A stretch of DNA of 33,761 nt, from positions 1 to 33,761 of the forward strand of contig CBFGIT010000028.1 in NCBI GenBank assembly GCA_965648905.1, in the 5' to 3' direction. The notes beneath the pieces were generated by a model. That model did not search any database, was not told the DNA's origin, and worked only from the letters and a program-made list of their open reading frames with translations. The stretch comes from a candidate division WOR-3 bacterium. Lineage in GTDB: Bacteria; Hydrothermota; Tepidihabitantia; Tepidihabitantales; Tepidihabitantaceae. Shown piece after piece: positions 11,504 to 33,362 of the stretch. The translations under genes and the position numbers were made by a program. Numbering within the stretch: position 1 is the stretch's first letter; every line of letters begins with the position of its first letter.

Positions 11504-13276
11504 CTAGCGGGTCAGAGTCAGCTTGCCGGTGACGCGCTTGGTGTCGAGCGTGTACCGGTACAGGTAGACCCCGGCCGGGACTTCCCTGCCGTTGTCTGCC
11601 CTGCCGTCCCAGACCGCGGTGTAGCGGCCCGGCTCGCACCGGCGGCTGACCAAAGTCTTCACCGGCCGACCGGTGGCATCAAACACAACCAACTCAGCAT
11701 GTCCGGACCACGGCACAGCGTAGCTCAGGTGCGCAGCGCGGTTGAACGGATTCGGAGTCGCGTTCACCGAGACCTTGCGCGGCACGACCTGCCTTGATGC
11801 GACACCGCCGGATACGTACGGGTTCTGCCACTTTCGGACGAGAATCGGGTTGGGCGTGGCCGGCCCTTCGTTGTATAGGAAGAAACCGGTCGCAAAGTCG
11901 CACAGATACGACACCATCACCGTGTCGGTGATAACGTCGAGCATGCACGGGAACCGATAGGTGTTGGTATCGGTATCGGTTATCTTCTCCGCCGGGGCCC
12001 AAGTCTGGCCATTGTCCGAGGAGTGCGAATACCATATCTCCGCCCGCAGCCTCGCAACCGGGACCGGCGTGTGATTCACGCAGTCAAACTCCTCCCAGGC
12101 CACGAACAGGTTGCCCATCGTGTCCTGACCAAGCGAAGGCCGGCATGCTTGAATCGCGTTGTATCCGATTGGAGCAGCAATCGTCTCCGGGTCTGGAGTA
12201 CGATGGATCAGGTCCCAGGTGTGGGGGTTCGCCTCGCACCAGTGCCACAGCTCAACCGGCAGCCAATGGTTTGTATCGTTGACCACCGGCTCGACCGCAG
12301 CCGCGATGTGCAACTGGTTGTCCATGTCATACATCGGGTACAGCGAGGTAATGTGGAAGGAAGGCACGGTCTCCGACCCCGGAGTGTAGGTCGAAGGCAG
12401 GGGCAGCTCGGTTGACAGACCCCAGTTGTCACCGCCATCGGTCGAGATCCGATAGTAACCCGGCTTGACACCATAGCCGTCCGGCGAATTGACCCAGGTG
12501 ATGCAGACATCGGCCCGACCCGACACCTGGGAAACCGCGATATTGTGGTCCGGGAACATCGGCTCCGGCGCCTGACCCGGCACGCTGACCTCAGGGTCCC
12601 AGTTGCACCACGAAGTGGCGCGGCTGTAGAAAAGGTTGTCCTGGCTCGTGTAGTCAATCATCCCCATCTGGTAGTAGCCGTTGGAACCAACCCGAACTGC
12701 GGGCCACGCGTTGTCGTCAATTGTCGGTTCACCCGGGCAGTATTCGAAAATGCCAGCACCAGATGCAACATCGCGGGCGACAACCGGTGCGAGTGAGCCG
12801 GTCGAGTGGTGAGCCGAGACTACCGCCACACCGGTATTCGGGTCGGCTTCGAGATTGCCAAACCCGGTCCGGTCCGAGAAAACACCGACTCCAGACTGCA
12901 TGTAGTCCGGGTCAATCCAGTTCCATGCCCGGGTGCTGTAGTCGTAGAAGTTGTAACGCATGTTCCGGTCCGGGAAAGACGTTCCCTGAGTCTCGACCGA
13001 GTGCATCCACACGACGTGCACACCCGCGCCCGGCGTGTTACTGATGAGCTTCAGGGCCGGGCCGTTGGCCTGCCAGTCATAGGTCGTACCACCGACCGTG
13101 TCAACCAGGCCCAGGGCAAACCGGCCAGCCTGACCCGGACCGGACTGCCCGATCGCCGGTCGAGTCGGAGGCCCGGCCTGAACTGGCCCTTCTGCCGGAA
13201 CTACGGTTGTTGGCTCCAGGCTTACTGCCAGCAGTAGTGCCGGTATCAGCAGCCCAAGGCACACGAGAGTACGCAT
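11504..13276 (-). CDS. Secreted Asp-box (BNR) repeat protein with FlgD-Ig/T9SS-like C-terminal domain
   Basis: Signal peptide; STDGGDNW and SSDNGQTW; C-terminal PNPFN...VFDATGRPV...WDGRADNG...GVYLYR...KLTLTR. Confidence 0.8.
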   Translation of the reverse strand: MRTLVCLGLLIPALLLAVSLEPTTVVPAEGPVQAGPPTRPAIGQSGPGQAGRFALGLVDTVGGTTYDWQANGPALKLISNTPGAGVHVVWMHSVETQGTSFPDRNMRYNFYDYSTRAWNWIDPDYMQSGVGVFSDRTGFGNLEADPNTGVAVVSAHHSTGSLAPVVARDVASGAGIFEYCPGEPTIDDNAWPAVRVGSNGYYQMGMIDYTSQDNLFYSRATSWCNWDPEVSVPGQAPEPMFPDHNIAVSQVSGRADVCITWVNSPDGYGVKPGYYRISTDGGDNWGLSTELPLPSTYTPGSETVPSFHITSLYPMYDMDNQLHIAAAVEPVVNDTNHWLPVELWHWCEANPHTWDLIHRTPDPETIAAPIGYNAIQACRPSLGQDTMGNLFVAWEEFDCVNHTPVPVARLRAEIWYSHSSDNGQTWAPAEKITDTDTNTYRFPCMLDVITDTVMVSYLCDFATGFFLYNEGPATPNPILVRKWQNPYVSGGVASRQVVPRKVSVNATPNPFNRAAHLSYAVPWSGHAELVVFDATGRPVKTLVSRRCEPGRYTAVWDGRADNGREVPAGVYLYRYTLDTKRVTGKLTLTR

Positions 13277-13376: not shown

Positions 13377-16300
13377 TCAGCGAGTGCACACGAGCTTTGC
13401 ACCCACAACGCTGCCCTCGGCCTCCAGCCGAACTAGATAGACGCCTGCGCCGACCCGGTGACCGCAGTCCGAAAGCCCGTCCCAGCTCAAGTTGTACGAC
13501 CCGGGGCCGACCAGCCGGTCACCCGAATCAAAGATGCGACGTACCAGGCGCCCGGACGCATCGAACACCAGGACCCGCGCCGACCCGGCCTGCGCGAGCC
13601 GGAAAGAGAAAGCGGCGCGGCCGGTGCACCATGGATTGGGGCTGACCGAAAGCGGCGCGGCCCGAACTGAGCTCACACCCGCCTCAGCGACACCTCGGTA
13701 GACGTCGGTCGTGAACTTGATTGCCCGGCCCGGCACAATCGGGGCCGCGGCACGGTGGTAAGCGCTGTTGTACAGCACCTGAATGCCGATTTGGCAGGTC
13801 GGGTCCTGTGCACCCACAGTCGACGAAGTCATCGCCTGCGCGGTCTTGTACTGAAGGATAAACACATTGTTGCCTGTACCTGAGGCCATGGTCGTGTCGT
13901 AGATGATGACCTGGTTCTTCTCAAAGACCGTACGCGGGTTGTAGTATGGAACCGAATCCCACTCAACGATGAAGCGATGATTGGCTGCGTCGTGGTAGTA
14001 CCAGACGCCGCCGCCGGTCGGCGGGTACAGGTCGTCCCAGTTCACCGCTATGAGCATCGGCGCAGTAGGATCAGGCAGCCCGGTGTTGTTGTAGGACGAA
14101 TTCGTGGTCGAGCCGGGCGCGACCCAGCCGTTACCGCAAATTGACACTTGGGTAAAACGTTGGTCGTAAAAGATGAACGGTCCGAACGCTGGGGGCAGGT
14201 CGATGACCACGGTCTGGTCGTCGCTCAAGGAGAGACGCGTACCCAGGCCCCGGATTTCGACCCAGTCGTACTGTGGGTGCTGCTCGTACATCGAATCGAC
14301 GTCGTCGTAGGCCCAGTAGAGCTCGGGTCGGCGCGGACCATCCGGAATTGGGTCGGTCGCGGTGAGCTCACCCACGGTGACGGTAAATTCGCAACTGTCC
14401 GCATATCCGGTCCCGACCAGCCGGAGTTTCATTCGTGCCGTGTACTCGCGCGGGCAGTTCAGCCGTGCCCTGACCCGGAACTTGTCGGTCCAGCAGTAAC
14501 GGACCGAGTCCGGCTCAAGCGTGCCGAACGCGCCGGTAGAATCAACGACCTGAACCATTGTGTCCGGTGTCTGCAGTCGGGCCTCAAGATCGGCAACCGG
14601 GAGGCGGCCGATGTTGCGCAGAGCCACGACCAGCCCTGCGGTTTCGCCCGGGTCGAGCTTGCCGTCGCCATTACCACCAGGTGGCGAGTCCTGTACGATC
14701 TTCCCATGGAACACGACCGCAGCCGCATTGGCAGTCACCGCTTCAATTGCATCCAGGTCAAAGCCCGCGGTCGCACCCGAGGTCGCGCCTGAGTCATCCA
14801 CTACTTTGACGTACCGGCAGGTCGGCACTCCGCCCTGGCCCAGGTCGAAGCTTGCGCTGCCCGTGTCCCAGCCGAGCGAGGTCCACGGCCCGGCCCAGTC
14901 GTTGGCGACCTCGATGCGATACCCTTCCGGGTCTGCATCGTCTTCGTAAACCGTGAAGTCATTGCCCGGCAGGTTGAAAATCTGACGACCGAAGTCAAAT
15001 ATCGCCATACCACCCCGGCCCAGAGAGAAACGCCGGCCATCACGGAGACCAAGCGCCAGGTCCGGAGTTGAGGAAATCGCGATGTCACTCACGCCCCGGC
15101 CGGCAATGAACTGATGCAACGAGACCGGCCGGGTCGTGTCCGGCGCAAGCCGCACGTTGACATAGGAGACGGTGTCCGCAGTCACAACGATGTTCGGCAC
15201 GGTCTTGGCAGCGTAACCGTTGGCCTCAACGACAAGGCTGTAGGTTCCGGGCCGTAAGTAGCGGTGGAAATCGCCGATCGAGTCGCAGTAGCTCGGGAAA
15301 TCAATCGGCATGGGCTTGACTCGGGCCCGAATCGGCACCCCGGTCAAAGAATCGGTCACGATGCCCCGGATTCCCCGGTCAATGTTGGCCAAAAGCATCT
15401 TCATCGCGGTGTGCTCGCGGGCCGTAATCTGCGCCAAAGATTCGACCGGCGGTGTCTTGTAGATGCACGTCTCGATCGTCCAACTGATAGCACCGAGCGC
15501 GCCGTAGGCCCAGTCCTTGGACGCACCGTTTATCTGATACATACCACGGTAGCCCGGTGCATTAGGGTAGCCGGTGATGTTATGGTACTGACCGCCCAGG
15601 TACCAGAACTCCATCGAGTCACGCGTGCCATATGGCGTATAACTCCACGGCGTGGAGATGAAGTAAGTGCCGCCGTGGCCCGATGACCAGTAGTTGAACG
15701 CATTGCGCTGAGCCAGACGGGCATGGGCCCTGGTTTCAGGTTGGGTGAACGGCTCGCGGGCTGAGGTTTCGTAGTACCACATGAAACCGTAGTCGCGGTT
15801 GCAATCGTAGCCGTTGCGGTTTGACCTCGTGCCGACGATGTGGCCGTACGGGTTGGTCGGGCACTGGACCCAGATTTCGCGCGTGTTCACCCAGTAGGTC
15901 ACGTCCGGGTCAACGCCGTAATTGCGAATCAGCCAGGCCGCCCATTCGAATATCGGCTCGGTCGCGCACTTCTCGTCGCCGTGGATTGCCGCCTCGAACA
16001 TCAGCTCCGGCTCGTCTTCCTCGATGTCCGGGTTATCGGTTATCTTCAAAGCAAAGAGCAGACTGTCGTTGGAAGCATAACCCAGGGTTTCGAACTTGAC
16101 GAACCCCGGGTTGTTCGCAGCCATCAGCATGAACGTATCGCGTATCTCGGTGTAGGTATGGAAACGGTAATCCCGGGCATTCTCCTCGTAGAACGTGTAA
16201 ATGTCGGGTTTGACCATCTCCACCCGGAAGCCAGACGCAGCCAGCTCGTCGACGCGTGGTGCCGGCACTTCGACCAGGAACCAGCCGTCCTGGTCCGGGC

Positions 16301-16445
16301 CGTTGACAACACAGCCGGCCTGCTCAAGATACTCGATGTCGTCGCGCGTCCGGACATCAACCTTCACCAGGTCATAGCGCCCCGCAGCCGGCACCGAGGT
16401 GGCCGATAGCAGAAGCACAACGATAACGCAACAGCGGGCTTTCAT
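13377..16445 (-). CDS. Secreted M14 zinc carboxypeptidase, multidomain, with FlgD-Ig/T9SS-like C-terminal domain
   Basis: Signal peptide; HGDE (HxxE), RSNRNGYDCNRDY, SGHGG and catalytic Glu in TIET; GIRGIVTD carboxypeptidase-regulatory-like domain; C-terminal PNP...FDASGRLV...WDG...GVYLVRL...KLVCTR. Confidence 0.88.
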   Translation of the reverse strand: MKARCCVIVVLLLSATSVPAAGRYDLVKVDVRTRDDIEYLEQAGCVVNGPDQDGWFLVEVPAPRVDELAASGFRVEMVKPDIYTFYEENARDYRFHTYTEIRDTFMLMAANNPGFVKFETLGYASNDSLLFALKITDNPDIEEDEPELMFEAAIHGDEKCATEPIFEWAAWLIRNYGVDPDVTYWVNTREIWVQCPTNPYGHIVGTRSNRNGYDCNRDYGFMWYYETSAREPFTQPETRAHARLAQRNAFNYWSSGHGGTYFISTPWSYTPYGTRDSMEFWYLGGQYHNITGYPNAPGYRGMYQINGASKDWAYGALGAISWTIETCIYKTPPVESLAQITAREHTAMKMLLANIDRGIRGIVTDSLTGVPIRARVKPMPIDFPSYCDSIGDFHRYLRPGTYSLVVEANGYAAKTVPNIVVTADTVSYVNVRLAPDTTRPVSLHQFIAGRGVSDIAISSTPDLALGLRDGRRFSLGRGGMAIFDFGRQIFNLPGNDFTVYEDDADPEGYRIEVANDWAGPWTSLGWDTGSASFDLGQGGVPTCRYVKVVDDSGATSGATAGFDLDAIEAVTANAAAVVFHGKIVQDSPPGGNGDGKLDPGETAGLVVALRNIGRLPVADLEARLQTPDTMVQVVDSTGAFGTLEPDSVRYCWTDKFRVRARLNCPREYTARMKLRLVGTGYADSCEFTVTVGELTATDPIPDGPRRPELYWAYDDVDSMYEQHPQYDWVEIRGLGTRLSLSDDQTVVIDLPPAFGPFIFYDQRFTQVSICGNGWVAPGSTTNSSYNNTGLPDPTAPMLIAVNWDDLYPPTGGGVWYYHDAANHRFIVEWDSVPYYNPRTVFEKNQVIIYDTTMASGTGNNVFILQYKTAQAMTSSTVGAQDPTCQIGIQVLYNSAYHRAAAPIVPGRAIKFTTDVYRGVAEAGVSSVRAAPLSVSPNPWCTGRAAFSFRLAQAGSARVLVFDASGRLVRRIFDSGDRLVGPGSYNLSWDGLSDCGHRVGAGVYLVRLEAEGSVVGAKLVCTR

Positions 16446-16936: not shown

Positions 16937-17458
16937 CTAGTCCTCCCTGACGATCTCGATCTCTCTCACATAGACGGTCTTCGATCCGGGCCATATGACG
17001 AACTGAATCCCAAAAGGGTCACCTGCAGAGAACAGCGGCATCCAGATCGGCATATCCACACTGTAGCTGCCAGCGGCCTCAGGTGATACGGTCACATGCT
17101 GTACGTGTCCCGCTCTGACGGCTGGACCGAGTTTGAGATTGAAGTGACTGTTGTTCATCAATGCGGTCTGGAGGCTGAATCTCACGTAGATGCGGTCGCC
17201 GAACTGCAGATCGCAGGGCAACGGTCTCCAGAAGTCGAGTTCCCCCCCTGCACCGGAAACGCTGAGCTTGGCAGAACCGCCAAACTTGTCCGACCACAAC
17301 GCCGAACCACTTCCGGCATCTGCGTCCATCACATCGTGCCACTTGCGGCTGGTCCTCCAGCCCACCATGTCTTCGGCGCTGCCAAAGGTGTACGTGGCTA
17401 TCACTTTAGCTTGAACTCCTCCCACAACAAGCAGGAGCACTGCTAAGACTCGCTGCAC
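16937..17458 (-). CDS. Hypothetical secreted protein (about 173 aa)
   Basis: GGAGG RBS then GTG 17458; signal peptide VQRVLAVLLLVVGGVQA; beta-rich mature part. Confidence 0.65.
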   Translation of the reverse strand: MQRVLAVLLLVVGGVQAKVIATYTFGSAEDMVGWRTSRKWHDVMDADAGSGSALWSDKFGGSAKLSVSGAGGELDFWRPLPCDLQFGDRIYVRFSLQTALMNNSHFNLKLGPAVRAGHVQHVTVSPEAAGSYSVDMPIWMPLFSAGDPFGIQFVIWPGSKTVYVREIEIVRED

Positions 17459-17642
17459 GGGACCTCCCCGGTTGTCGCCGCCTTGCATCCGAAGACAGCC
17501 GATGTTACCTTCGACGCGGATGCCGCCGTTTGCAGGGACTTGGTTTGGCCGTCGTTCGCTGCCCTGCCGGGCGAATGGCGGATGACAGGCGCCCCGCGTA
17601 CACGGGCAGCGCCGGTCGAATCGTAGGTTGTTAGATTTGGAT

Positions 17643-17691
<49 letters not shown>

Positions 17692-17941
17692 ACAATCGGC
17701 GTGCCGGTGGCACGCGCTACGCTTGAGGCGACACTCATCATGCAGAAGGGCAGACAGCGGGTTGGTTGTGAACCGGGACTGGCAGGACTGCAACCAATCG
17801 ACTCAGACTCAACCAACATAGACTGACTTGATGTACCAGAACGCGGCGAAAAGTCAAGAACGGCTTGCGGCCGCAACCCGAAATCCGAATGACGATTCAG
17901 GCCCGAAGCACGAGAGGACGTGCTCGACGTCACGTAATGCA

Positions 17942-18880: not shown

Positions 18881-20092
18881 TCAGGACGACCGCAGGTGCA
18901 GTACGTCTGGCGGCCGCCTAGGCTCTCGATAGAACGTCCCGTACCCGAGTCCCAGACGCCATTCTGCGCCGCGCGCTCCCAGAAAGAGCCCGGCAATATC
19001 ACTGGCGCCGAACGACACGCTGAGCCGGCCCACCAACAGTCCGGCGTCAAACCCAGCAATCGTCCCTGACTCCGAGTCAAACCCCAACCTGGTTGCCAGT
19101 GGCAGCCACGTCTTAGGCCATAGTTCGTACATCCCGACCACCGCCCAGCCGTCGTTGTCGGTTGCACCGGCCAGCCGCGTGAGTGCCACGATACCGACAT
19201 TCATCCGATCCGTGAACCGATGCCCGGCCACAAGGTTCAGCCGGACCGGCAGACGGGTGGTGAAGTAGCCGGAGCCGTTCGGACTGTATCCATACCAGGC
19301 CCGACCGCCCGAACCGAGCTCATAGACAGTGCAGGTGTCAAGGTCGAGCGAGTAGATGCCTTGCCGAATGCCTTCGGTCCAGACTATCCCGTCGGAAAGG
19401 TCAAGTACTGAAAGAGCCAGGTGGTAGCTTCCGACTCGACATGCAGCGCCAAGGTCTGCGGCCCAACCCGCACCACCCCGAGCCTCGCGGAAGGCCATGG
19501 TTCCGGCACCGACCAGCGCCGCCGGCGTTGTCAGAAGCGAGACCCGGGCGTCGGAAACCTCGCGGAAGTAGATTCCCTGAAGCCGGTGCGCCGCGACACC
19601 GAGCATCAGGTGCCGACCCAGCCCGGTCCCTACCCCGACTCCGCCCCGCCAGTAAACCTCGTCGCTTGCCCAGGCATTGTCGGCAACGTAGGTGCGGCCC
19701 AGCACGTTACCCTGAAGGGCCAGGTCAATCAAGTCCTTGGGCAGTCTCAGCCCGACCCGCCGCACGGTACGGACCGAAGCAGCAAGGTTGCCGTATCCGA
19801 ACTCAGCCGCTCCGGCCTGCAGGTAGCCGTTGAAGCCGAACCCTTCACTCGGAACCGTGTGCAGGATATCGGCCTTGGCTGCCGAGTCGAGATATGCGCC
19901 CGTATATCGGTTGTACTGACTGAAGCTCAGGCAGTTGTTCTCGACCCCGGCTCCGAGGTTGAGAATCCGGCACGCGAACCCGGGACGCTCGGGCGCGGCA
20001 AGCTGGGCCGGATTGACAACCAGCGCATCAGGGCCGGTCAGGAATGCAGGATTGAACACTGCGCCGAGCAGACAGGTGACCAGCACGATCAT
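18881..20092 (-). CDS. Putative outer-membrane beta-barrel protein (DUF5723-like)
   Basis: Short signal peptide; VVNPAQL motif; alternating amphipathic strands (GWAADLGA, LSVLDL, LPVRLNL). Confidence 0.65.
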   Translation of the reverse strand: MIVLVTCLLGAVFNPAFLTGPDALVVNPAQLAAPERPGFACRILNLGAGVENNCLSFSQYNRYTGAYLDSAAKADILHTVPSEGFGFNGYLQAGAAEFGYGNLAASVRTVRRVGLRLPKDLIDLALQGNVLGRTYVADNAWASDEVYWRGGVGVGTGLGRHLMLGVAAHRLQGIYFREVSDARVSLLTTPAALVGAGTMAFREARGGAGWAADLGAACRVGSYHLALSVLDLSDGIVWTEGIRQGIYSLDLDTCTVYELGSGGRAWYGYSPNGSGYFTTRLPVRLNLVAGHRFTDRMNVGIVALTRLAGATDNDGWAVVGMYELWPKTWLPLATRLGFDSESGTIAGFDAGLLVGRLSVSFGASDIAGLFLGARGAEWRLGLGYGTFYREPRRPPDVLHLRSS

Positions 20093-22017
20093 CGTCCACC
20101 TCCGGTCCGGACTCGAAGCGTCAAGAGCGCCCCCAGCCCAAGCCCGTCCGAGGCGAGGACGGTCACCGTATCCGACGCCGGCAGCTCGAAACGAAGCCGG
20201 GCCGAAAGCGGCCAGACCTGGAGCAGCGACAGCGCAACCGAGTCCAGCTCACACGCGACCGTCGTATCGCGGCTCCCCACGCAGTAGCCGTATCGGTCGA
20301 GCCTGCCGCGGCTCACACCAAAAGGTACGACCAGCGAATCGACCAGCGCCATACCTTTGCTGGCACTGTCCCGACTCAGCACCAGCCGACCGGTCATGCC
20401 CACCGGCAGATGGCTTGACGCCTCAATCCGGACGTTGGCGCCGACCAGATGCTTTGCCAGAAGCTTCCGCTGTTTCTCCGGCACCTCAACCGTCCGGACC
20501 GGCGTCTCGACAGTATCCGGCACAAATGCGAGGCGCAGCGGCGTGCTTACCACGGCCCGCGCCGAGGCCCAGGCTCCCTGTTGGCAACTGCCCGAGCCCA
20601 GGATTCGACAACTATACTCAGCGCAGATTGAGTCCGGCCCGACATTGAGCAGCTCGGTCACCGGGAACACGAACTCGGTGACAACCGGCTGTTCCAGTCG
20701 CCCGGCACTGGCAGTCAGCGTCTTTCCCAGCGTCGCGGCCCGCTCACCGTTGCGCAGTGAGTGAATTCGCAGACAGATTGCCAGCGGGAATCCGACGCTG
20801 TTGGCAACATCAAGTGCGAGCTCGGCATTGGCCACCCGCGCGCCCTTGAGCCGGTAAGGAAACACTTCCGGAAGAATCCGCCGGCACGAACCGATGTACA
20901 CCGGCGACTTGAACTCACCGGCAACAAGCGTGGTTCTGAGTGTCGTGGTTTGGTAGGACACGGTCACCCCGTCGTTCTTACCCAGTTCAACCAGGTCATC
21001 GGTCCCCAAAGGCCGGGCCCAGACCAGGTAGTCGAACAACGAGTTGACCCGACTTCGACTGTCAAGCTTCAGCCCGTCGAGCGGCAGATTGATACTCACC
21101 CTGCCTCGGGCTTCGAGCTGGTACTCGCCTGCGAATCCAAGCTTCGGCACACTCAGCCGCACCAGCGCCGGCACGTCGAAGTCGTTCGTCAACTCAAGCG
21201 ACCATGTGCCGGTGGCCAGTTCCAAGCTGTCGACACGAAAAGGCTTTGAGGCGGCGATTGAGACGTGACAACGCCGCTGCCCTTCGCAGTCCGGAATCCT
21301 CATCCGAGCGCTCCCTACGCGCAGCGACTCAAGTGCATAGCTGAACACGACTGAGTCCCGGCGACTCAGCATCACGGTGTCCGAGCCTGACGAACCGGCA
21401 ATGAACGTTGCCGGGAAAGACGAACCAAGGCACGCCCCTCCGCATCTTATTCCTGCTTCAACCGTCGCCCCTCCGGCGACCGACCCGAAGTCCAACCGCC
21501 CGAGCGGCGAGACCATGGTAAGCGAATCGAACGCCACGCTTGAGTAGTTCTGCGCCGTGACCCGAACCACCGCCTCGATCACCTCGGCCCGCTCCAGGCC
21601 ATCAATTCGGCAGTCCCGGCTGAACCGATTCTCAAACGGCGGCACCAGGCTCTTGCTGCCGGAATCAGGCAACGGCAGGCCGGTCATCTCTGCCAATGTC
21701 AACCTGACCCTTCCGGCTCCAGCATCGGCGATAACGAACTGCTCCAGCTCGACCCGATTGGTGCTGTCAGCCGCGAACACTTCCAGCGCTTCGTCCGGCC
21801 GCACGGTATCGAGCGGCAAAGCCAGACTGAACGATACCAGCGACTCGTCGTCGACCGCAAAGAGCGCCGTGTCGAGGAAATCAACCAGCCGTAGACTCCC
21901 GTTGTACAAAGGGATGTTCGCTTCGATGTCCCACTCCGGCGCTTCCGGCGCCCTCAGGCAGTAGGCGCCAATCAGTGCGCAGACAATTCCAACAACTGCT
22001 ACTTGATACCCCTTCAC
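20089..22017 (-). CDS. Large hypothetical exported/lipoprotein, coupled to the beta-barrel gene
   Basis: AGGAG RBS and GTG at 22017; hydrophobic leader ending in ...LIGAYC; ATGA overlap with the next gene. Confidence 0.7.
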   Translation of the reverse strand: MKGYQVAVVGIVCALIGAYCLRAPEAPEWDIEANIPLYNGSLRLVDFLDTALFAVDDESLVSFSLALPLDTVRPDEALEVFAADSTNRVELEQFVIADAGAGRVRLTLAEMTGLPLPDSGSKSLVPPFENRFSRDCRIDGLERAEVIEAVVRVTAQNYSSVAFDSLTMVSPLGRLDFGSVAGGATVEAGIRCGGACLGSSFPATFIAGSSGSDTVMLSRRDSVVFSYALESLRVGSARMRIPDCEGQRRCHVSIAASKPFRVDSLELATGTWSLELTNDFDVPALVRLSVPKLGFAGEYQLEARGRVSINLPLDGLKLDSRSRVNSLFDYLVWARPLGTDDLVELGKNDGVTVSYQTTTLRTTLVAGEFKSPVYIGSCRRILPEVFPYRLKGARVANAELALDVANSVGFPLAICLRIHSLRNGERAATLGKTLTASAGRLEQPVVTEFVFPVTELLNVGPDSICAEYSCRILGSGSCQQGAWASARAVVSTPLRLAFVPDTVETPVRTVEVPEKQRKLLAKHLVGANVRIEASSHLPVGMTGRLVLSRDSASKGMALVDSLVVPFGVSRGRLDRYGYCVGSRDTTVACELDSVALSLLQVWPLSARLRFELPASDTVTVLASDGLGLGALLTLRVRTGGGR

Positions 22018-22092
22018 CCTCAACTCCTGTTCAACCCCTGTCCGGAACCACCCCTGGTCCGGAACTGCTAACCGACCCCCCGTTCCTGCCGT

Positions 22093-22126
22093 AGAAAAAG
22101 GAGCCGCACAGACCCTGTGAGCGTCC
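22093..22126 (-). terminator. Candidate intrinsic terminator closing the structured RNA
   Basis: Minus strand GGACGCTCACAG-GGT-CTGTGCGGCTCC-TTTTTCT (bulged stem plus U tract). Confidence 0.5.
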
Positions 22127-22826
22127 AAGAGTGCCAATTTCTTAGAGAGGCGGCATTCTCTTTTTTTGCGAACAACCCTTCAGGCGTAAGGCAGCCCCGA
22201 AACACCGTATGTGGTCTGCCGAGCGGCCAAAGGATGGGGGCCGTTTGTGAGAGGACTTGGGCGTGGGCAGAATCCCAAGAAGGAGGCTAAGATGCCGGCC
22301 CCCGATGAAAGAAAGGCGGACGCTACGCCAAGTGACCATATCGCTTGGTGCCCGGCCCGGTGCCTGGTAACCGACCATTCCCCCGTCAAACTACTCTCCT
22401 CCTGAGTCAGACACCGGCCGAGACGCACCCGGCGGTAGGTCCGCGACCCTGTTTCCCCGTCAAAAGAAGAGCGGGCTCCTCCTTCCCAACACAGGGAAAC
22501 CGAATTGATGACGAGTAGAGCAGAAAGGCTCAAGCGGTTTGAGGCTGAGACAACGGCGAGAGGCTAAGATGGCAGAGAGACCCTTTTGTGATGCGCCCTT
22601 GATGAGAGCTGTCATCCCTTCTGCCCTACTCGTCCCGCGATGCGGCAAGCGAATTCTATGCCGCCCGGCAGACCACACTCCGAATTGTCAAAGAACCAGA
22701 CCTAGCGACTAGAAAAGGGGGTGCCCAGACCGAACCTTACAGAGACGCCAAACGGAGGAACCAATAGCTGACAAGGCACCCCCCCTCTGGAATTGTCTAG
22801 TCCAGGTAGTCTCATGCAACATTCGG
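22095..22826 (-). ncRNA. Candidate large multi-domain structured RNA (core 22209-22678)
   Basis: Nested helices 22209-22227/22660-22678, 22510-22528/22616-22634, 22451-22460/22491-22500, 22351-22366/22408-22422, 22316-22329/22431-22444 and 22236-22243/22296-22303; mismatches are A-C on plus and G-U on minus; no recognisable protein. Confidence 0.7.
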
Positions 22827-22836
22827 CACAGTGAAT

Positions 22837-22852
22837 AGCACCGGTCGTGCCA
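22837..22852 (-). promoter_or_regulatory. sigma54 (RpoN) -24/-12 promoter
   Basis: TGGCAC-GACCG-GTGCT with exact GG-N10-GC spacing; predicted +1 near 22826. Confidence 0.65.
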
Positions 22853-23050
22853 GCACTGACTCCGGCCATCGAATGCAGCAAGACGTTGGCAGTTCATGAG
22901 TTAGACCACGGACCACGAACCGTCAGGGTATGCGACACAGGCATCCACCGTGCGCGACCGGATATCATAACCATCGGATTTTCGGAACATTAGGCAATTG
23001 CGACACACGCCCCTTACCAGCCGCAGAAATGTACCGGTCGAGCACTCGGC

Positions 23051-23078
23051 TTGACTCGCTCCAGTCAGGAGTTATAAT
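23051..23078 (+). promoter_or_regulatory. sigma70 promoter of the rimP operon (probably leaderless)
   Basis: TTGACT-16 bp-TATAAT, 6 nt before ATG 23085. Confidence 0.7.
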
Positions 23079-23084
23079 CGAGCA

Positions 23085-23627
23085 ATGACCAGTCAGTTAC
23101 CGCCCGCAGTGTCAGAGCTCTGCCGCAAGGTGAGCGAGGAACAGCACGCCGAAGTCTACCACGCGGAGCTGAACGGCCGCGTGCTCAGTGTGCAGATTGA
23201 GGTGACCGGTGGCACGTCACTTGATGCCTGCGCACGTTTCTCGCGTGCCCTCTCGGCCGAACTTGACGCTGCCGACGCACTGCCGGGCCGATACGTCCTT
23301 GAGGTCTCATCCCCCGGGGTTGAACGCCGGCTTTACTGTCCGGCCGACTTCGCACGGGTCGTGGGTGCAGTGGTTCGGATAAGAACTTCGCAACGGACCT
23401 GGGAGAGCAGATTGCTTGCGGCAGACGATTCCTCCATCAAGCTGGTCGGCACCGAAGACAACCGGCCCAGGGCTGTCTCAATAATGTACGGTGAAATCAC
23501 CGAGGCGCGGGTGGTTGTCCGGGATGATGAGTTGTTCCGGTCACGACCAGGTCCCGCAACGCGTAGTCCGGTCGGTCCTGAGGTGGCCGCGACCGAGTCT
23601 GCGGACTGGCAGAAAGGGAATCAGTGA
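23085..23627 (+). CDS. rimP: Ribosome maturation factor RimP
   Basis: SLDACARFSRALSAELD and YVLEVSSPGVERRL; directly upstream of nusA. Confidence 0.9.
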   Translation: MTSQLPPAVSELCRKVSEEQHAEVYHAELNGRVLSVQIEVTGGTSLDACARFSRALSAELDAADALPGRYVLEVSSPGVERRLYCPADFARVVGAVVRIRTSQRTWESRLLAADDSSIKLVGTEDNRPRAVSIMYGEITEARVVVRDDELFRSRPGPATRSPVGPEVAATESADWQKGNQ

Positions 23628-29889: not shown

Positions 29890-29894
29890 CGATG

Positions 29895-30398
29895 CTAGCT
29901 CAGGAAAAGATACTGACGCCAGGCCTCAGGCACGGTACCGAGCGCGCTGACAGCAAAGGTGAAGTAATGCGGTTTGCGCGGCCGGCGGCGCAGGCTCATC
30001 ATCGCCTGGGCCGGAGTCCGATTACCCTTCTTGGCGTTGCAGTCCGGGCACGCACAGACCAGATTCTCCCACGTATCCCCGCCGTTCAGCGACTTGGGGA
30101 TGACGTGGTCGGTCGTCATTGCGCCCTGCCGCGTTCCGCAGTACTGGCATACCCCGCCGTCACGCCGCAGCACGTTACGCTTGGTCAGCGGCACGTCTCG
30201 ACGCTTGACCCGCACGTAGTAGTTGAGCCGGAGCACGCTCGGCAGCCGCAGCGCGGTTCGCACCGAGCGTGCCGTCATCCCCGAGCACTCAAGCATCTCG
30301 GCCTTTCGCGCGAGCACCAGCACCAGTGCCCGGCGCGCCTTGCACACCGACAGCGGCTCGAAATTCTGGTTCAGCAACAGAACCTGCTGGTCAAGCAT
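29895..30398 (-). CDS. HNH endonuclease (McrA-like, HNH_5)
   Basis: VLLLNQNFEPL, RDGGVCQYCG, DHVIPKS.GG..WENLVCAC..CNAKKGNRTP. Confidence 0.9.
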   Translation of the reverse strand: MLDQQVLLLNQNFEPLSVCKARRALVLVLARKAEMLECSGMTARSVRTALRLPSVLRLNYYVRVKRRDVPLTKRNVLRRDGGVCQYCGTRQGAMTTDHVIPKSLNGGDTWENLVCACPDCNAKKGNRTPAQAMMSLRRRPRKPHYFTFAVSALGTVPEAWRQYLFLS

Positions 30399-30404
30399 CG
30401 CCGG

Positions 30405-31589
30405 CTAGTTGTCCCGGACGAACAACTCCTTGTCAATCGCCTCGACGGTCTTATCAATATAGTCGTTCTGTGCCCGGGCGTATGACGAGTACGCCGGGTC
30501 CTGAGCACCCCGGGCGTAGTAGGACTTGGCTTCCTGATACAGTGCCTTGGCCGCCTTGAGCCTGGACACCGGCGTTGCCGCCAGATTCGTCCCGCGCTGC
30601 TTGTCTGCCGCCTGACGCCGGATGTCACCCAAGTCCATCCAGGCTTGCACCAGATCCGGGTTCAAAGCCAGGGCGCGGCGCAGACGAATCTCGGCTGCGC
30701 TGGTATTGCCCTGTTGGAGCAGCGCTTCACCCCAATACAAGTGATACTCGGCCTTGGTCGAGTCGCGCCTCACCAGGTCCTCAAACACGACCAGCGCCTG
30801 CTTGGTCTTCTGCTGCAGCATCAACACCGCCCCTTTGCGCAGCAGCGCGTCGCGGTTGTCCGGGTCACTTAGCAGCACGGTATCAAGCTGTGCCGCCGCC
30901 GCCGCGTAGTCCTTCAGTTCCAGCAGTACGTCCACCAGCCGCTGACGAAGCATCACGACGGTCGGAAACCGGGCAATGACCGGCCCAAGCGCGTCCGCAG
31001 CCTCACGAAAGCGCTTCTGCTTGTAGAGGAAATCAGCCCAGAGCCGCTGCACGTTCTGGTCGTCCGGGAAAAGACGCATCGCGGCCTTGAACATCGCCTC
31101 GGCATTGGCCCATTCGTTCTTGCGCACATAGACCTCGGCGGCCCCGTTATACAGGTCAACCAGAGTCGAGTCCTGCTTCAACCCGGAAAGATAGACGGCA
31201 AGGGCCGAATCCACCTGCCCCATGGAAAAATACAGGTCGCCCAGTCCTTCGTATGCCTTGGGCCGCTTCGGGTCCACCTTCAGCGCCTTACGGAACCAGA
31301 CTTCGGCCTCGCCTGCCTCCCGCTGTCGGCGATAGGTTGCCCCGACCGCGACGTAGGCCTCATAGAAAGTCGAGTCATGAACCAGGGCTTCCTTGAAGTT
31401 CTTCAACGCAGCCTCCAGGTCTCCCTGGGCAAAATACTGCTGGCCGATACTGTAACTCGCCTGGGCCTGCTCGCGGTGCGCCTTCAACTCCTCTTCCGAG
31501 GTCGGTTTCACGCTTTGAGAAGGTGCACAGGACAACGCGGCCAGCACGGCCGCGGCCCAGCCGAACGAAACGATTCTCGATGATTTCAA
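30405..31589 (-). CDS. TPR lipoprotein
   Basis: AGGAG RBS and TTG at 31589; lipobox-like LAALSC; multiple TPRs. The ORF-track start at 31703 lies inside the tRNA. Confidence 0.85.
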   Translation of the reverse strand: MKSSRIVSFGWAAAVLAALSCAPSQSVKPTSEEELKAHREQAQASYSIGQQYFAQGDLEAALKNFKEALVHDSTFYEAYVAVGATYRRQREAGEAEVWFRKALKVDPKRPKAYEGLGDLYFSMGQVDSALAVYLSGLKQDSTLVDLYNGAAEVYVRKNEWANAEAMFKAAMRLFPDDQNVQRLWADFLYKQKRFREAADALGPVIARFPTVVMLRQRLVDVLLELKDYAAAAAQLDTVLLSDPDNRDALLRKGAVLMLQQKTKQALVVFEDLVRRDSTKAEYHLYWGEALLQQGNTSAAEIRLRRALALNPDLVQAWMDLGDIRRQAADKQRGTNLAATPVSRLKAAKALYQEAKSYYARGAQDPAYSSYARAQNDYIDKTVEAIDKELFVRDN

Positions 31590-31636: not shown

Positions 31637-31709
31637 TGGAGCCGACGGGAGTCGAACCCGTGACCTCTTGACTGCCAGTCAAGCGCGCTCCCAGCTGCGC
31701 CACGGCCCC
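31637..31709 (-). tRNA. tRNA-Ala(GGC), CCA not encoded
   Basis: GGGGCCG/CGGCTCC acceptor stem with G3-U70; anticodon arm CTTGA-CTGGCAG-TCAAG; T loop GTTCGAC. Confidence 0.97.
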
Positions 31710-32013: not shown

Positions 32014-32041
32014 TTGACGTGGTTCTGCCTGGCGGTAGACT
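32014..32041 (+). promoter_or_regulatory. sigma70-type promoter
   Basis: TTGACG-16 bp-TAGACT; overlaps the ORF-track start at 32019. Confidence 0.55.
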
Positions 32042-32060
32042 ATCGCGTGTAGAGACGACC

Positions 32061-33362
32061 GTGGAGACTTCCAGATTCCGGTTGATGCTCCTGGCCTGCT
32101 TCCTGCTGGCCGGCGGAGTGAGCTATGGCCAGTGGATTGAGGATTCGATTTGGGTGCCGGGCGCGTGCATGGACATACTCTACAACCCCCTGTCCAACAA
32201 GGTCTACGTCAGCCTGACAACAGACCAAGTCGTCGTGATTGACGCGGCGACGAACCAGGTCATCAACACCATCTCTGTTCCCGAACCCCAGGACTTGGCC
32301 CTGAACACCAACCTCAACAAGGTGTACTGCACCTCGGGTGAATGGGACCGGCTGACAGTGGTCGACGGTGTCGCGGATACGGTGGTCAAGGTCGTGAGCA
32401 CCCCGGGCTGGCCGTACCGGATGGTGTTCAACGCGGCGCTGAACAAGCTGTATGTCGCCTGCACCGATGCCGGGGCGGTGCGCGTCGTGGACGGGGCGCG
32501 GGATTCGTTGGTCAAAGCGGTCCGCGTCGGGTCGGAAGGACCGGAGTACATGCTGTGGCACCCGAATTCCAATAGGCTCTTCTGCTCGCTCCGCTATCAA
32601 GCCTCGGTCGTGGTCGTAGACTGCCTTCGCGACGAAATCGTCAGCTCGCGGCAGGCTCAGCTACCTCAGGCTTCGTGCTGGAATCGGGTCAACGACTTCG
32701 CCTACCTGTTGACCAAGGACACGATTTTCGCATTTACCCCGGCGGGCGACTCGGTCGTTGCCAGGATACCCGCGAACATTCACAACAACGGCATGGGCGC
32801 GTGCTTTGTCCCGTACCCAAACAAGATGTATGCTTTTGGAGGTGACCCGTACCGCAAGATTTTCGTGGTCGACTGCGGGTCTCAGACGGTAGTTGAGACC
32901 CTGACCAGCGGAGGTTCTTCTGGCAGCCTTCTTCTCGACAGCATTGCCGGCAAGGTCTATGCATCGGGAGCTGGAGTGCGCATCTTCGATGCCTGGGCAG
33001 ATACTTTGGTCGCGAGGTTCAGCCCCGGTCGCTACCCTTTTGGAATGACATGGAACTGGCGGAACCGGAGGGTCTACGTCGCGCATGCGATGGAAAGTTT
33101 CGTCTGCACGATCAGGGACACAGCGACCGCCGTCGCCGAGCCGTCCGCACCGACGGCGCGGCCGTCCGTGCCCATCGCGACGGTCATTCGTCGGGCTATC
33201 GTCTTGCGGGCCGGCGGACAGGCAGACCTGTTCGACCTCTCAGGACGGGCCGTCGCACGCTTGCGACCAGGCGCGAACGATGCACGCGGTCTGGCACTTG
33301 GCGTCTACTTCGTGCGTCTAGGGGATGATGCTCACACGGCCAAGGTTGTGATTAGCAGATAG
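32061..33362 (+). CDS. Secreted YncE/YVTN beta-propeller protein with T9SS-like C-terminal domain (start 32061 or 32085)
   Basis: Signal peptide; repeats NKVYV..VVVIDAATNQVI and NKLYVA..VRVVDG; C-terminal FDLSGR...GVYFVR...KVVISR. Confidence 0.85.
   Translation: METSRFRLMLLACFLLAGGVSYGQWIEDSIWVPGACMDILYNPLSNKVYVSLTTDQVVVIDAATNQVINTISVPEPQDLALNTNLNKVYCTSGEWDRLTVVDGVADTVVKVVSTPGWPYRMVFNAALNKLYVACTDAGAVRVVDGARDSLVKAVRVGSEGPEYMLWHPNSNRLFCSLRYQASVVVVDCLRDEIVSSRQAQLPQASCWNRVNDFAYLLTKDTIFAFTPAGDSVVARIPANIHNNGMGACFVPYPNKMYAFGGDPYRKIFVVDCGSQTVVETLTSGGSSGSLLLDSIAGKVYASGAGVRIFDAWADTLVARFSPGRYPFGMTWNWRNRRVYVAHAMESFVCTIRDTATAVAEPSAPTARPSVPIATVIRRAIVLRAGGQADLFDLSGRAVARLRPGANDARGLALGVYFVRLGDDAHTAKVVISR

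Follow-up and report, generated by a model that had tools for sequence, protein, structure and literature searches.

What occupies the gap between rimP and the lipoprotein-like gene that runs away from it on the opposite strand? In the window, the 33,761-nucleotide stretch of DNA from a candidate division WOR-3 bacterium (genome G000) that was analysed here, a first-pass annotation had placed in this gap an undescribed structured RNA of ~730 nt on the minus strand, with a sigma-54 promoter and a terminator of its own. The features that frame the gap, and the element itself, are as follows.

18881..20092, minus strand: DUF5723 gene, overlapping the end of the lipoprotein-like gene
20089..22020, minus strand: lipoprotein-like gene, 643 aa from a GTG start (22020), with no family in Pfam or NCBIfam
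22095..22826, minus strand: putative structured RNA gene, ~730 nt, its start placed from the promoter and its end from the terminal helix and U5
23051-23078: sigma-70-like promoter of the rimP side
23085..23627, plus strand: rimP, which opens the divergent rimP-nusA-infB operon

Fold, covariation and coding tests

All stems named in the first-pass annotation are present in the sequence. Folding of the minus strand with RNAfold formed the closing stem, the upstream arm and each of the four arms it had listed (22510-22634, 22451-22500, 22316-22444 and 22236-22303). The folding energy was -303 kcal/mol (z -3.34), which was equalled by 0 of 20 shuffles, compared with -263.2 kcal/mol (z -2.15) for the plus strand. 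From 5′ to 3′, the RNA has a hairpin, then a long-range closing stem around three arms, and then a separate 3′ domain that ends in the terminal helix, with these parts.

22714..22786, minus strand: 5′ hairpin GGGGGUGCC/GGCACCCCC, listed as AGGGGGGGUGCC / GGCACCCCCUUU, apical GGUUCCUCCGUUUGGCG (RNAfold and covariation)
22685..22696, minus strand: best-conserved 5′ motif GUUCUUUGACAA, near-invariant in 30/30 homologs
22660..22678, minus strand: 5′ strand of the 19-bp closing stem, consensus 22664-22674 (RNAfold, covariation)
22511..22633, minus strand: arm P3, a 16-pair consensus stem (RNAfold, as the 19-bp arm 22510-22634, and covariation)
22316..22487, minus strand: middle region, of variable length among homologs (covariation, alignment)
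22237..22302, minus strand: domain GGGGCC...GGCCCC around the hairpin UUGGG/CCCAA (covariation, helices 5 and 6)
22209..22227, minus strand: 3′ strand of the 19-bp closing stem, consensus 22213-22223 (RNAfold, covariation)
22100..22198, minus strand: 3′ terminal domain (covariation)
22095..22099, minus strand: U5 run after the terminal helix, present in G000

Covariation was scored over 23 sequences and 87 pairs, and alignments with the pairing partners slid, as well as 500 shuffles, served as controls. The results show that 90.0% of the cells were paired, compared with 39.0-49.6% when the partners were slid, and that 49 of the 87 pairs had compensatory changes, compared with 12-30; none of the 500 shuffles matched any of the measures. 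Compensatory changes were found at 10 of 12 pairs of the 5′ hairpin (helix 1, 75.9% of cells paired), which is missing in the f3 and f4 forms of the RNA, at 9 of 11 pairs of the closing stem (helix 2, 94.4% paired) and at 14 of 16 pairs of the P3 stem (helix 3), whose interior is conserved and pyrimidine-rich (22541-22583, GGGUCUCUCUGCCAUCUUAGCCUCUCGCC...). The middle region contains GGGAAGGAGG at 22476-22487 and the stem GCGGACCUAC/GUAGCGUCCGC (22435-22444 with 22316-22326; helix 4, 6 of 10 pairs compensatory, 82.2% paired), and the GGGGCC...GGCCCC domain carries the near-invariant loop GGCAUCUUAGCCUCCUUCUU at 22277-22296. In the 3′ domain, the terminal helix (22175-22198 with 22100-22122) encloses the hairpin AGAGAAUGCC/GGCACUCU (22128-22161) and has compensatory changes at 10 of 17 pairs in the alignment across all families. 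For this domain as a whole, 93.3% of cells were paired in that alignment, which is model-fitted and includes one spurious 31st row, compared with 35.6-59.9% in the controls, and 21 of 41 pairs were compensatory, compared with 1-7. A blind search for further covarying helices returned many short G-rich/pyrimidine-rich pairings, none of them convincing, and no partner for the 5′ GUUCUUUGA motif.

The first-pass annotation had also counted about ten stem mismatches that become G-U pairs on the minus strand, and had read them as selection on a minus-strand RNA. Of the 87 consensus pairs, 9 are G-U in G000, close to that count. Across the 23 homologs, where 193 cells are G-U, 90.0% of cells pair on the minus strand compared with 82.2% on the complement, in agreement with that reading.

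The region has long inverted repeats and three minus-strand open reading frames of 72-117 aa, as would be expected of a DNA-level element (nested palindromes, a MITE or IS remnant, or a protein-binding array) or of small protein genes. However, each of the 193 G-U cells forms a pair on just one of the two strands, and the compensatory changes preserve pairing rather than sequence. The three open frames have no Pfam match, in line with the earlier statement that the gap holds no recognisable protein; among the 23 homologs, no ORF was conserved, the longest open frames (63-185 aa) differing in strand, frame and length, and no 3-base period was found in the variation. In addition, the conserved motif has no match in the viral contigs scanned, and the element is single-copy in every genome that carries it and syntenic. 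As far as sequence analysis goes, these readings are refuted, and we give them practically no chance. A mobile repeat of the MITE or IS kind was itself rejected on one copy in G000, one confident match per carrier genome and conserved synteny. With compensatory pairs above the controls and no conserved reading frame, the element has the sequence signature of a structured non-coding RNA.

Distribution and known RNA families

Homologs, ~400-840 nt long compared with ~730 nt in G000, were found as single copies within one order, where 30 of 66 genomes carry them; all 30 come from that order and are not independent of each other. The class contributed 66 further genomes and a phylum sample 125 genomes outside the order, and none was found in either set. 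For two RNA-less genomes, G010 (genus g10) and G028 (f5), a search of the region upstream of rimP with the filters switched off still gave no RNA (top score 2.9 bits), and in G012, G051 and G013 rimP itself was not found with the query used. A motif scan of a genome-contig collection returned one true locus, identical in sequence to that of G024, and one chance match in a Vicinamibacterales MAG. Metagenome contigs gave only one chance match (1.1 bits) and viral contigs none, in collections that may leave out near relatives.

The gap had no match at gathering score among 4227 Rfam families. With permissive filters, cmscan of 21900-23200 (1.3 kb) gave a single chance-level match, MIMT1_1 (13.9 bits, E 9.4). 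We take the Rfam 15 model set to cover OLE, GOLLD, ROOL, raiA, HEARO and group I/II introns. The first-pass annotation had seen no hallmarks of RNase P, tmRNA, SRP RNA or 6S RNA, and all four were located elsewhere in G000.

C2:151104-151472: RNase P RNA, above its cut-off
C27:15279-15632: tmRNA, above its cut-off
C25:25086-25184: SRP RNA, above its cut-off
C3:11348-11523: 6S RNA, above its cut-off

A diverged copy of a known RNA (one of these four, OLE, GOLLD, ROOL, raiA, a group I/II intron or an IscB/TnpB guide RNA) or an rRNA fragment would account for a size class akin to that of OLE and ROOL and for short identities with the 16S 3′ tail (CCUCCUU, and AUCACCUCCUU in f2). Against it stand the Rfam result, with its sole permissive match at chance level, the four housekeeping RNAs placed elsewhere, and neighbours that include no reverse transcriptase, IscB/TnpB or phage gene; this explanation is largely refuted and, in our judgement, very unlikely.

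GOLLD and ROOL occur within prophages or close to tRNAs, with a patchy spread over the phyla. Like the element, they are very large ornate bacterial RNAs of unsolved function that were recognised only by covariation; unlike them, it is chromosomal, single-copy and syntenic beside rimP, and has neither an Rfam match nor a match of its motif in viral contigs. GOLLD and ROOL form homo-oligomers, according to one report (PMC12286853). Full-text searching found no description of an RNA like ours in the parts of the literature that it returned. Since no described family matches and the element occurs in one order only, it appears to represent a new class among the large bacterial RNAs. To our knowledge, only about a dozen bacterial RNA classes above 400 nt with a conserved covarying fold have been described, and each that we know of is a ribozyme, a ribonucleoprotein machine or an unsolved puzzle such as OLE, GOLLD and ROOL. 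A new member would suggest that annotation by known families overlooks large RNAs in uncultured phyla, and this one offers an architecture that can be placed (promoter, probable activator site, domains and 3′ end) as well as a natural minimal form, the ~400 nt version in AT-rich relatives.

The promoter and its upstream sites

The -24/-12 promoter that the first-pass annotation had put upstream of the RNA is present, and two enhancer-like sites lie further upstream.

22837..22852, minus strand: sigma-54-type promoter TGGCACGACCGGTGCT, with -24 GG and -12 GC, conserved in homologs
22931..22937, minus strand: enhancer-like TGTCGCA, proximal copy, 85 nt before the -24 element
22999..23005, minus strand: enhancer-like TGTCGCA, distal copy, 153 nt before the -24 element

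The strict pattern TGGCA[CT]-N5-xTGC was found at 17 of 23 f1 and f2 loci, with variants at the rest, and the f3 and f4 loci have the form TGGCAT-N5-TTGA/TTGT, in which the -12 element is not TGC. The promoter and its TGTCGCA sites are conserved at 29 of 30 loci, with at least one sense-strand site at each of the 29, and most loci have TGTC[GA]CA between about -142 and -168. Sites of this type number 45 in 9,348 nt of upstream sequence compared with 12 in 132,084 nt of flanks, and among 57 sigma-54-like sites in G000 only the promoter of the RNA has the motif at -78 to -110. G000 has one Sigma54_DBD gene (rpoN) and 17 Sigma54_activat matches, with at least 12 strong activator genes.

Thus a conserved -24/-12 element at canonical spacing is found together with rpoN, activators and an upstream site, and the minus strand of the gap is probably transcribed by sigma-54 RNA polymerase. 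In a search of sequencing runs, none catalogued as RNA contained the stretch, the only matches being small-share rows of DNA contigs. Control of the RNA probably runs through the two TGTCGCA sites, by way of an enhancer-binding activator dedicated to it, and this apparent activator site, unique in its genome, would give a handle on the regulation. The non-coding RNA genes GlmY/GlmZ, Qrr and NrsZ are likewise driven from -24/-12 promoters that have an activator site upstream. These are base-pairing or decoy sRNAs of 100-230 nt in Proteobacteria, whereas the RNA studied here has 400-840 nt and a multi-domain covarying fold.

The downstream operon and the 16S-like loops

The first-pass annotation had left two functional readings side by side, a new class of non-coding RNA or a very long leader, and both survive. 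In G000, the lipoprotein-like gene starts 79 nt past the end of the RNA-model match at 22099, and in 23 of the 30 genomes such a gene follows the RNA on the same strand, its start codon and a strong Shine-Dalgarno (SD) sequence lying 5-113 nt after the terminal helix (5-27 nt for the aligned start in f4). No lipoprotein-like ortholog without the RNA was found in the genomes searched, and the genomes that have no RNA have no ortholog either. More distant paralogs of the gene (about 22-26% identity) are present, and at 4 of the 6 paralog loci fetched the paralog is preceded by one and the same gene, which encodes a protein with C-x-x-C pairs; neither the RNA nor the promoter was found at any of the 6.

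These data could be explained if the element acted purely in cis, as an exceptionally long 5′ leader to the lipoprotein-like/DUF5723 operon with no role of its own, whose fold would control read-through at the terminal helix or hide the SD sequence. The tight linkage fits such a leader equally well, the position directly before the gene in 23 genomes favours it, and the asymmetry, RNA without gene but no gene without RNA, would be expected of a promoter plus leader. In addition, CACCUCCUU in f2 and f4 is perfectly complementary to the downstream AAGGAGGUG; this SD/anti-SD-type complementarity is limited to these two forms, and no covarying alternative helix was found.

The 3′ end bears on this reading in both directions. 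In G000 it has the form of an intrinsic terminator, a G+C-rich stem and then a U-run, with the terminal hairpin and U5 spanning 22115-22096 on the minus strand, and the earlier claim of a terminator holds for this genome. Across the homologs, a U-run 3′ of the terminal helix (at least 5 U in the first 8 nt) was found in only 10 of 30. In those 10 the arrangement resembles an attenuator; however, two thirds of the homologs have no U-run, the helix is a long-range one that encloses ~100 nt rather than a simple terminator hairpin, and the blind covariation search found no alternative antiterminator pairing. Moreover, a length of 400-840 nt with long invariant loops is far beyond any leader known to us, which we count against this reading.

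The genomes in which the RNA stands without the gene also bear on the choice. An element that was only a leader would always lie directly upstream of the gene and co-oriented with it, which is true in 23 of the 30 genomes and false in 7. In these 7 (genera g9, g7, g5 and g10) a tRNA-Ala gene or a convergent gene comes next, and 90.6% of cells are still paired, so that a well-folded RNA is kept without such a gene in four genera. Within g9, the closing stem differs on both strands between G024 and G009 (CCGCGG/CCGCGG compared with CUGCGG/CCGCAG). In g10, the RNA is missing from most genomes, and the two copies found score lower and have unpaired changes at 12 of 18 variable pairs; these copies could be decaying after gene loss, as the leader reading would have it.

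Weighing this evidence, we regard a leader without a role of its own as the main rival and as possible, though rather unlikely. We favour, with modest confidence and from sequence comparison, the reading that the element is the gene for a previously undescribed large structured RNA that is autonomous and has its transcription unit in common with a cell-envelope operon. The RNA would act in its own right within one transcription unit with the lipoprotein-like/DUF5723 operon, an arrangement like that of OLE, and given the common unit a single signal would switch on both the RNA and the operon. This ties the RNA to an envelope operon that is itself uncharacterised.

The OLE RNA of Bacillota offers a close parallel in layout: both RNAs are large (about 600 nt), intricate and lineage-restricted, with long invariant stretches, and both lie in one transcription unit with envelope or membrane protein genes. 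They differ in that the RNA studied here has no Rfam-model match, belongs to a WOR-3-like phylum, has a sigma-54 promoter and enhancer-like sites, and has neighbour proteins for which Pfam and NCBIfam show no relation to the Oap proteins. The raiA motif RNA is likewise structured and usually lies just upstream of one particular gene, and for both RNAs this place makes a cis role the first reading. It differs in lineage and gene context and is unrelated in fold and sequence, the RNA studied here being two to four times larger. The raiA RNA is now regarded as a non-coding RNA in its own right, a view supported by one report (PMC10861870).

A possible activity is suggested by the near-invariant unpaired loops, which contain CCUCC(UU), a sequence that forms the core of the 3′ tail in this organism's 16S rRNA. 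The 16S 3′ end is GGAUCACCUCCUUU in all 5 genomes read, and CCUCC is enriched about 3-fold (62 observed compared with 20 expected). Our best guess is that the loops may bind SD-like purine tracts or a protein that recognises the 16S-tail core; the strong SD of the downstream lipoprotein-like gene would be the first target to consider. In f2 and f4, the 16S-like CACCUCCUU lies in the closing helix, paired to GGAGG, and therefore the 16S-like sequence may be purely structural.

The protein bS21 lies near the 16S 3′ tail. The OLE RNA has been linked to this ribosomal protein, according to a published report (PMC12054373). One might go further and propose a new WOR-3-like class of ornate RNAs that imitate the 16S 3′ tail, are switched on by one dedicated sigma-54 activator, and capture SD sequences or a CCUCC-reading 30S assembly or initiation factor, so retuning translation or small-subunit maturation; in some lineages the RNA would then mimic the SD/anti-SD duplex itself. 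This would fit the fixed place beside rimP-nusA-infB, and we consider it improbable. The motifs that resemble the 16S tail are open to direct experiments. A candidate pseudoknot, GAAGGAGG:CCUCCUUC, was rejected because its purine strand varies without compensation (GAAGGUGG in G006, GAAGGAAG in G022 and GAAAGAGG in G063), while CCUCCUU is invariant throughout.

Fold and surroundings of the RNA

The 0.95-kb gap is flanked by the gene of a 643-aa lipoprotein-like protein on the minus strand and by the rimP-nusA-infB operon on the plus strand, and it holds no match to any protein family. The first-pass annotation had proposed a structured RNA of about 730 nt on the minus strand of this gap and a comparison of its fold with shuffled sequences on both strands. 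When 22095-22826 was folded, the minus strand reached -303 kcal/mol (z -3.34), which none of 20 shuffles equalled, and the plus strand reached -263.2 kcal/mol (z -2.15). The minimum-energy fold of the minus strand includes the 19-bp closing stem and every arm listed at first pass. The proposed -24/-12 promoter and hairpin plus U5 were also found, the former as the element TGGCACGACCGGTGCT at 22852-22837 on the minus strand and the latter as a hairpin with CTTTTT at 22115-22096. A near-consensus sigma-70-type promoter (TTGACT-16-TATAAT, 11 of 12 matches) also lies just before rimP at 23051-23078 on the plus strand, and thus the gap has divergent promoters of two sigma classes.

Features of the RNA and its flanks (window coordinates; f1 to f5 are families of one order)
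22852-22837, minus: promoter
22786-22714, minus: 5′ hairpin, missing from f3 and f4
22696-22685, minus: near-invariant GUUCUUUGACAA
22678-22660 with 22227-22209, minus: closing stem
22633-22511, minus: arm P3, with a conserved pyrimidine-rich interior
22487-22316, minus: middle of variable length, with the GCGGAC stem
22302-22237, minus: GGGGCC/GGCCCC domain, its loop GGCAUCUUAGCCUCCUUCUU near-invariant in f1 and f2
22198-22100, minus: separate 3′ domain closed by a long terminal helix, then U5
22020, minus: GTG start of the 643-aa gene
23085, plus: start of rimP

Nothing in the gap reached the gathering score in the suggested search of Rfam 15 (4227 models), and permissive filters over 1.3 kb gave a single match at chance level (E 9.4). 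Hallmarks of RNase P, tmRNA, SRP and 6S RNA had been reported missing at first pass; these identities were rejected, since all four RNAs were found above their cut-offs elsewhere in G000, the genome carrying the window. A repeat was rejected because the stretch is present once in this 3.0-Mb genome, and a coding region because the longest open frames (63-185 aa) switch strand and frame among 23 homologs, in which column variability has no three-base period. The sole Rfam match of the whole window is a tRNA gene (31637-31709, minus strand, 66 bits).

Homologs and covariation

A BLASTN search recovered the stretch from 17 of 40 related genomes and, within the order, from 23 of 66 genomes (G000 included). 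R1, a covariance model built on the 3′ domain (209 positions, 41 pairs), gave one confident match per genome in 30 of these 66, again counting G000; with G000 left aside, matches were obtained in 20 of 43 genomes of f1, both of f2, all six of f4, one of four of f3 and none of ten of f5. R1 had no match in 66 genomes from other orders of the class or in the 125 out-of-order genomes within a 151-genome sample of the phylum. The f4 and f3 matches, which are weak (25-47 bits), are real; each directly precedes a 643-aa gene homolog, and those of f4, six in number, are also divergent from rimP/nusA. Collecting homologs upstream of rimP had been suggested at first pass, and rimP and/or nusA does lie divergently on the upstream side at 28 of the 30 loci, all but G029, where the contig ends, and G030. 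Upstream of rimP in G010 and G028, two genomes without a match, nothing was found, also with filters off. The RNA is between about 400 nt (f4, whose loci have about 28% G+C) and about 840 nt (genus g10) long. In the 3′ domain of L053 and L054 (G063 and G059, g10) and of L051 and L052 (f2), insertions of 70-120 nt separate the terminal helix from the closing-stem strand, and the f2 insertion is the source of the strand pairing with AUCACCUCCU.

For 23 f1 and f2 sequences aligned by MAFFT (A3), RNAalifold predicted 68 pairs, 33 of them with compensatory change. With the 5′ hairpin and the GCGGAC stem included, 87 pairs were compared with controls in which the 3′ partners were slid by 1-3 columns, and also with 500 shuffles. 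Standard pairs filled 90.0% of cells (39.0-49.6% when slid), 49 pairs (12-30) and 161 cells (24-63) were changed on both sides, and the covariation score was 0.298 (0.086-0.109); no shuffle attained any of the observed values, and these counts come from genomes that are kin and not independent samples. Compensatory change was found in 9 of 11 pairs of the closing stem, in 14 of 16 of arm P3 and in 10 of 12 of the 5′ hairpin, yet just 75.9% of the cells of this hairpin are paired. In A4, a model-fitted alignment of the 3′ domain from all families that is biased towards its own model (31 rows, including one spurious weak opposite-strand match in L040), 93.3% of cells were paired compared to 35.6-59.9% in the control, with compensatory change in 21 of 41 pairs (1-7 in the control) and in 10 of 17 pairs of the terminal helix. 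In a further alignment, A2, the 5′ half misaligns the f4 sequences. The earlier view that selection acts on a minus-strand RNA is borne out by the 23 homologs, in which 90.0% of cells pair on the sense strand and 82.2% on its complement, with 193 G-U cells. We conclude that the RNA is real and that, on present evidence, it constitutes a new family; the portion of the literature covered by our search held no description of such an RNA.

Promoter and transcription unit

Of 23 f1 and f2 loci, 17 carry the strict pattern TGGCA[CT]-N5-xTGC upstream and the remainder have variants; the form in f3 and f4 is TGGCAT-N5-TTGA/TTGT. At fixed distances upstream of the promoter (about -85 to -114 and -132 to -168) lies TGTC[GA]CA, which occurs 45 times on the sense strand within 9,348 nt, compared to 12 times in 132,084 nt of flanks (both strands). 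At least one site is present in 29 of 30 loci and two in 16; the sole locus without one has just 68 nt of upstream sequence. G000 carries rpoN and 17 Sigma54_activat matches, and among its 57 sigma-54-like sites the motif stands at -78 to -110 only at the RNA promoter. From these patterns we infer that the promoter probably has a dedicated activator.

In 23 of the 30 genomes the RNA is succeeded on its own strand by a 643-aa gene homolog, which starts 5-113 nt past the RNA and has a strong SD before its start (e.g., AAGGAGGUG in f2 and f4). Among the gene-less genomes, a convergent gene lies downstream in G007, and no homolog of the 643-aa gene was found downstream in G063 and G059. In G024, G005, G009 and G017 (L014, L015, L017 and L018), the gene that comes about 110-140 nt after the RNA, and shares its strand, is tRNA-Ala(UGC), and co-transcription with 3′ processing via tRNA maturation is possible there. 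A search with the 643-aa product detected it in 40 of the 66 genomes. Every ortholog (29-75% identity) sits immediately downstream of the RNA, apart from one further fragment at a contig edge in G061, and none is present in those f1 genomes that have no RNA. A more distant relative, a paralog with about 22-26% identity, is present elsewhere and in all of f5, and both RNA and promoter are missing at the six paralog loci examined. As a lead to the taxon, NCBI assigns a protein with 93% identity to part of the 643-aa product to a candidate division WOR-3 bacterium, a phylum whose present name is Caldifarciminota. Since orthologs stand only beside the RNA and seven RNA loci are gene-less, no case of the gene without the RNA was seen, while the converse was.

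The constant placement of the orthologs would suit a purely cis-acting leader, and the gene-less loci speak against one; we consider such a leader rather unlikely. We lean modestly towards an autonomous RNA, which would belong to the same sigma-54 transcription unit as the envelope operon formed by the 643-aa gene and its neighbour, the DUF5723 gene, and other readings take up the small remainder. Pairing extends to 90.6% of cells in the seven gene-less genomes versus 94.9% in eleven gene-linked f1 genomes; members of genus g9 differ from one another in the closing stem by a compensatory pair, and the two g10 copies have lower scores, with mostly unpaired changes as differences. The RNA had been credited with its own terminator, which holds for G000 (hairpin and CTTTTT) but not across the homologs, as the terminal helix is followed by a U-run (5 or more U within 8 nt) in 10 of 30, including G000, G007, both f2 and five of six f4. 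For homologs without a U-run, the simplest expectation is that transcription would read through into the gene.

In four of six paralog loci fetched (L071, L073, L074 and L075, from G040, G007, G024 and G032), the paralog comes directly after one shared gene encoding a protein with C-x-x-C pairs, a context unlike that of the RNA-linked ortholog.

Likeness to the 16S rRNA tail and other observations

The 16S rRNA 3′ end is ...GGAUCACCUCCUUU in five genomes of the order. CCUCCUU lies within a near-invariant 3′ loop of the RNA in f1 and f2, and f4 has CCUCCCUU there; the 5′ half contains AUCACCUCCUU in f2 and CACCUCCUU in f3 and f4, and the 5′ hairpin has UUCCUCC. Across the 30 RNAs, CCUCC occurs 62 times versus 20 expected from shuffles, and GGAGG 46 times versus 24. 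In f2 and f4 the 16S-like segment and a GGAGG-rich strand form the closing helix, and at least in these two families the segment is structural. Purely as speculation, the CCUCC loops could bind SD sequences or a protein.

Elsewhere in the window, Pfam gave no match for three ORFs of 197-447 aa (16937-17713, minus strand, also without an NCBIfam match; 29892-30485 and 32019-33362, plus strand). A FlgD_ig-like domain forms the end of two large proteins (11504-13276 and 13377-16445, both minus strand), one of them an M14 carboxypeptidase of 1022 aa; these ends look like the C-terminal sorting domain that is widespread in the FCB group.
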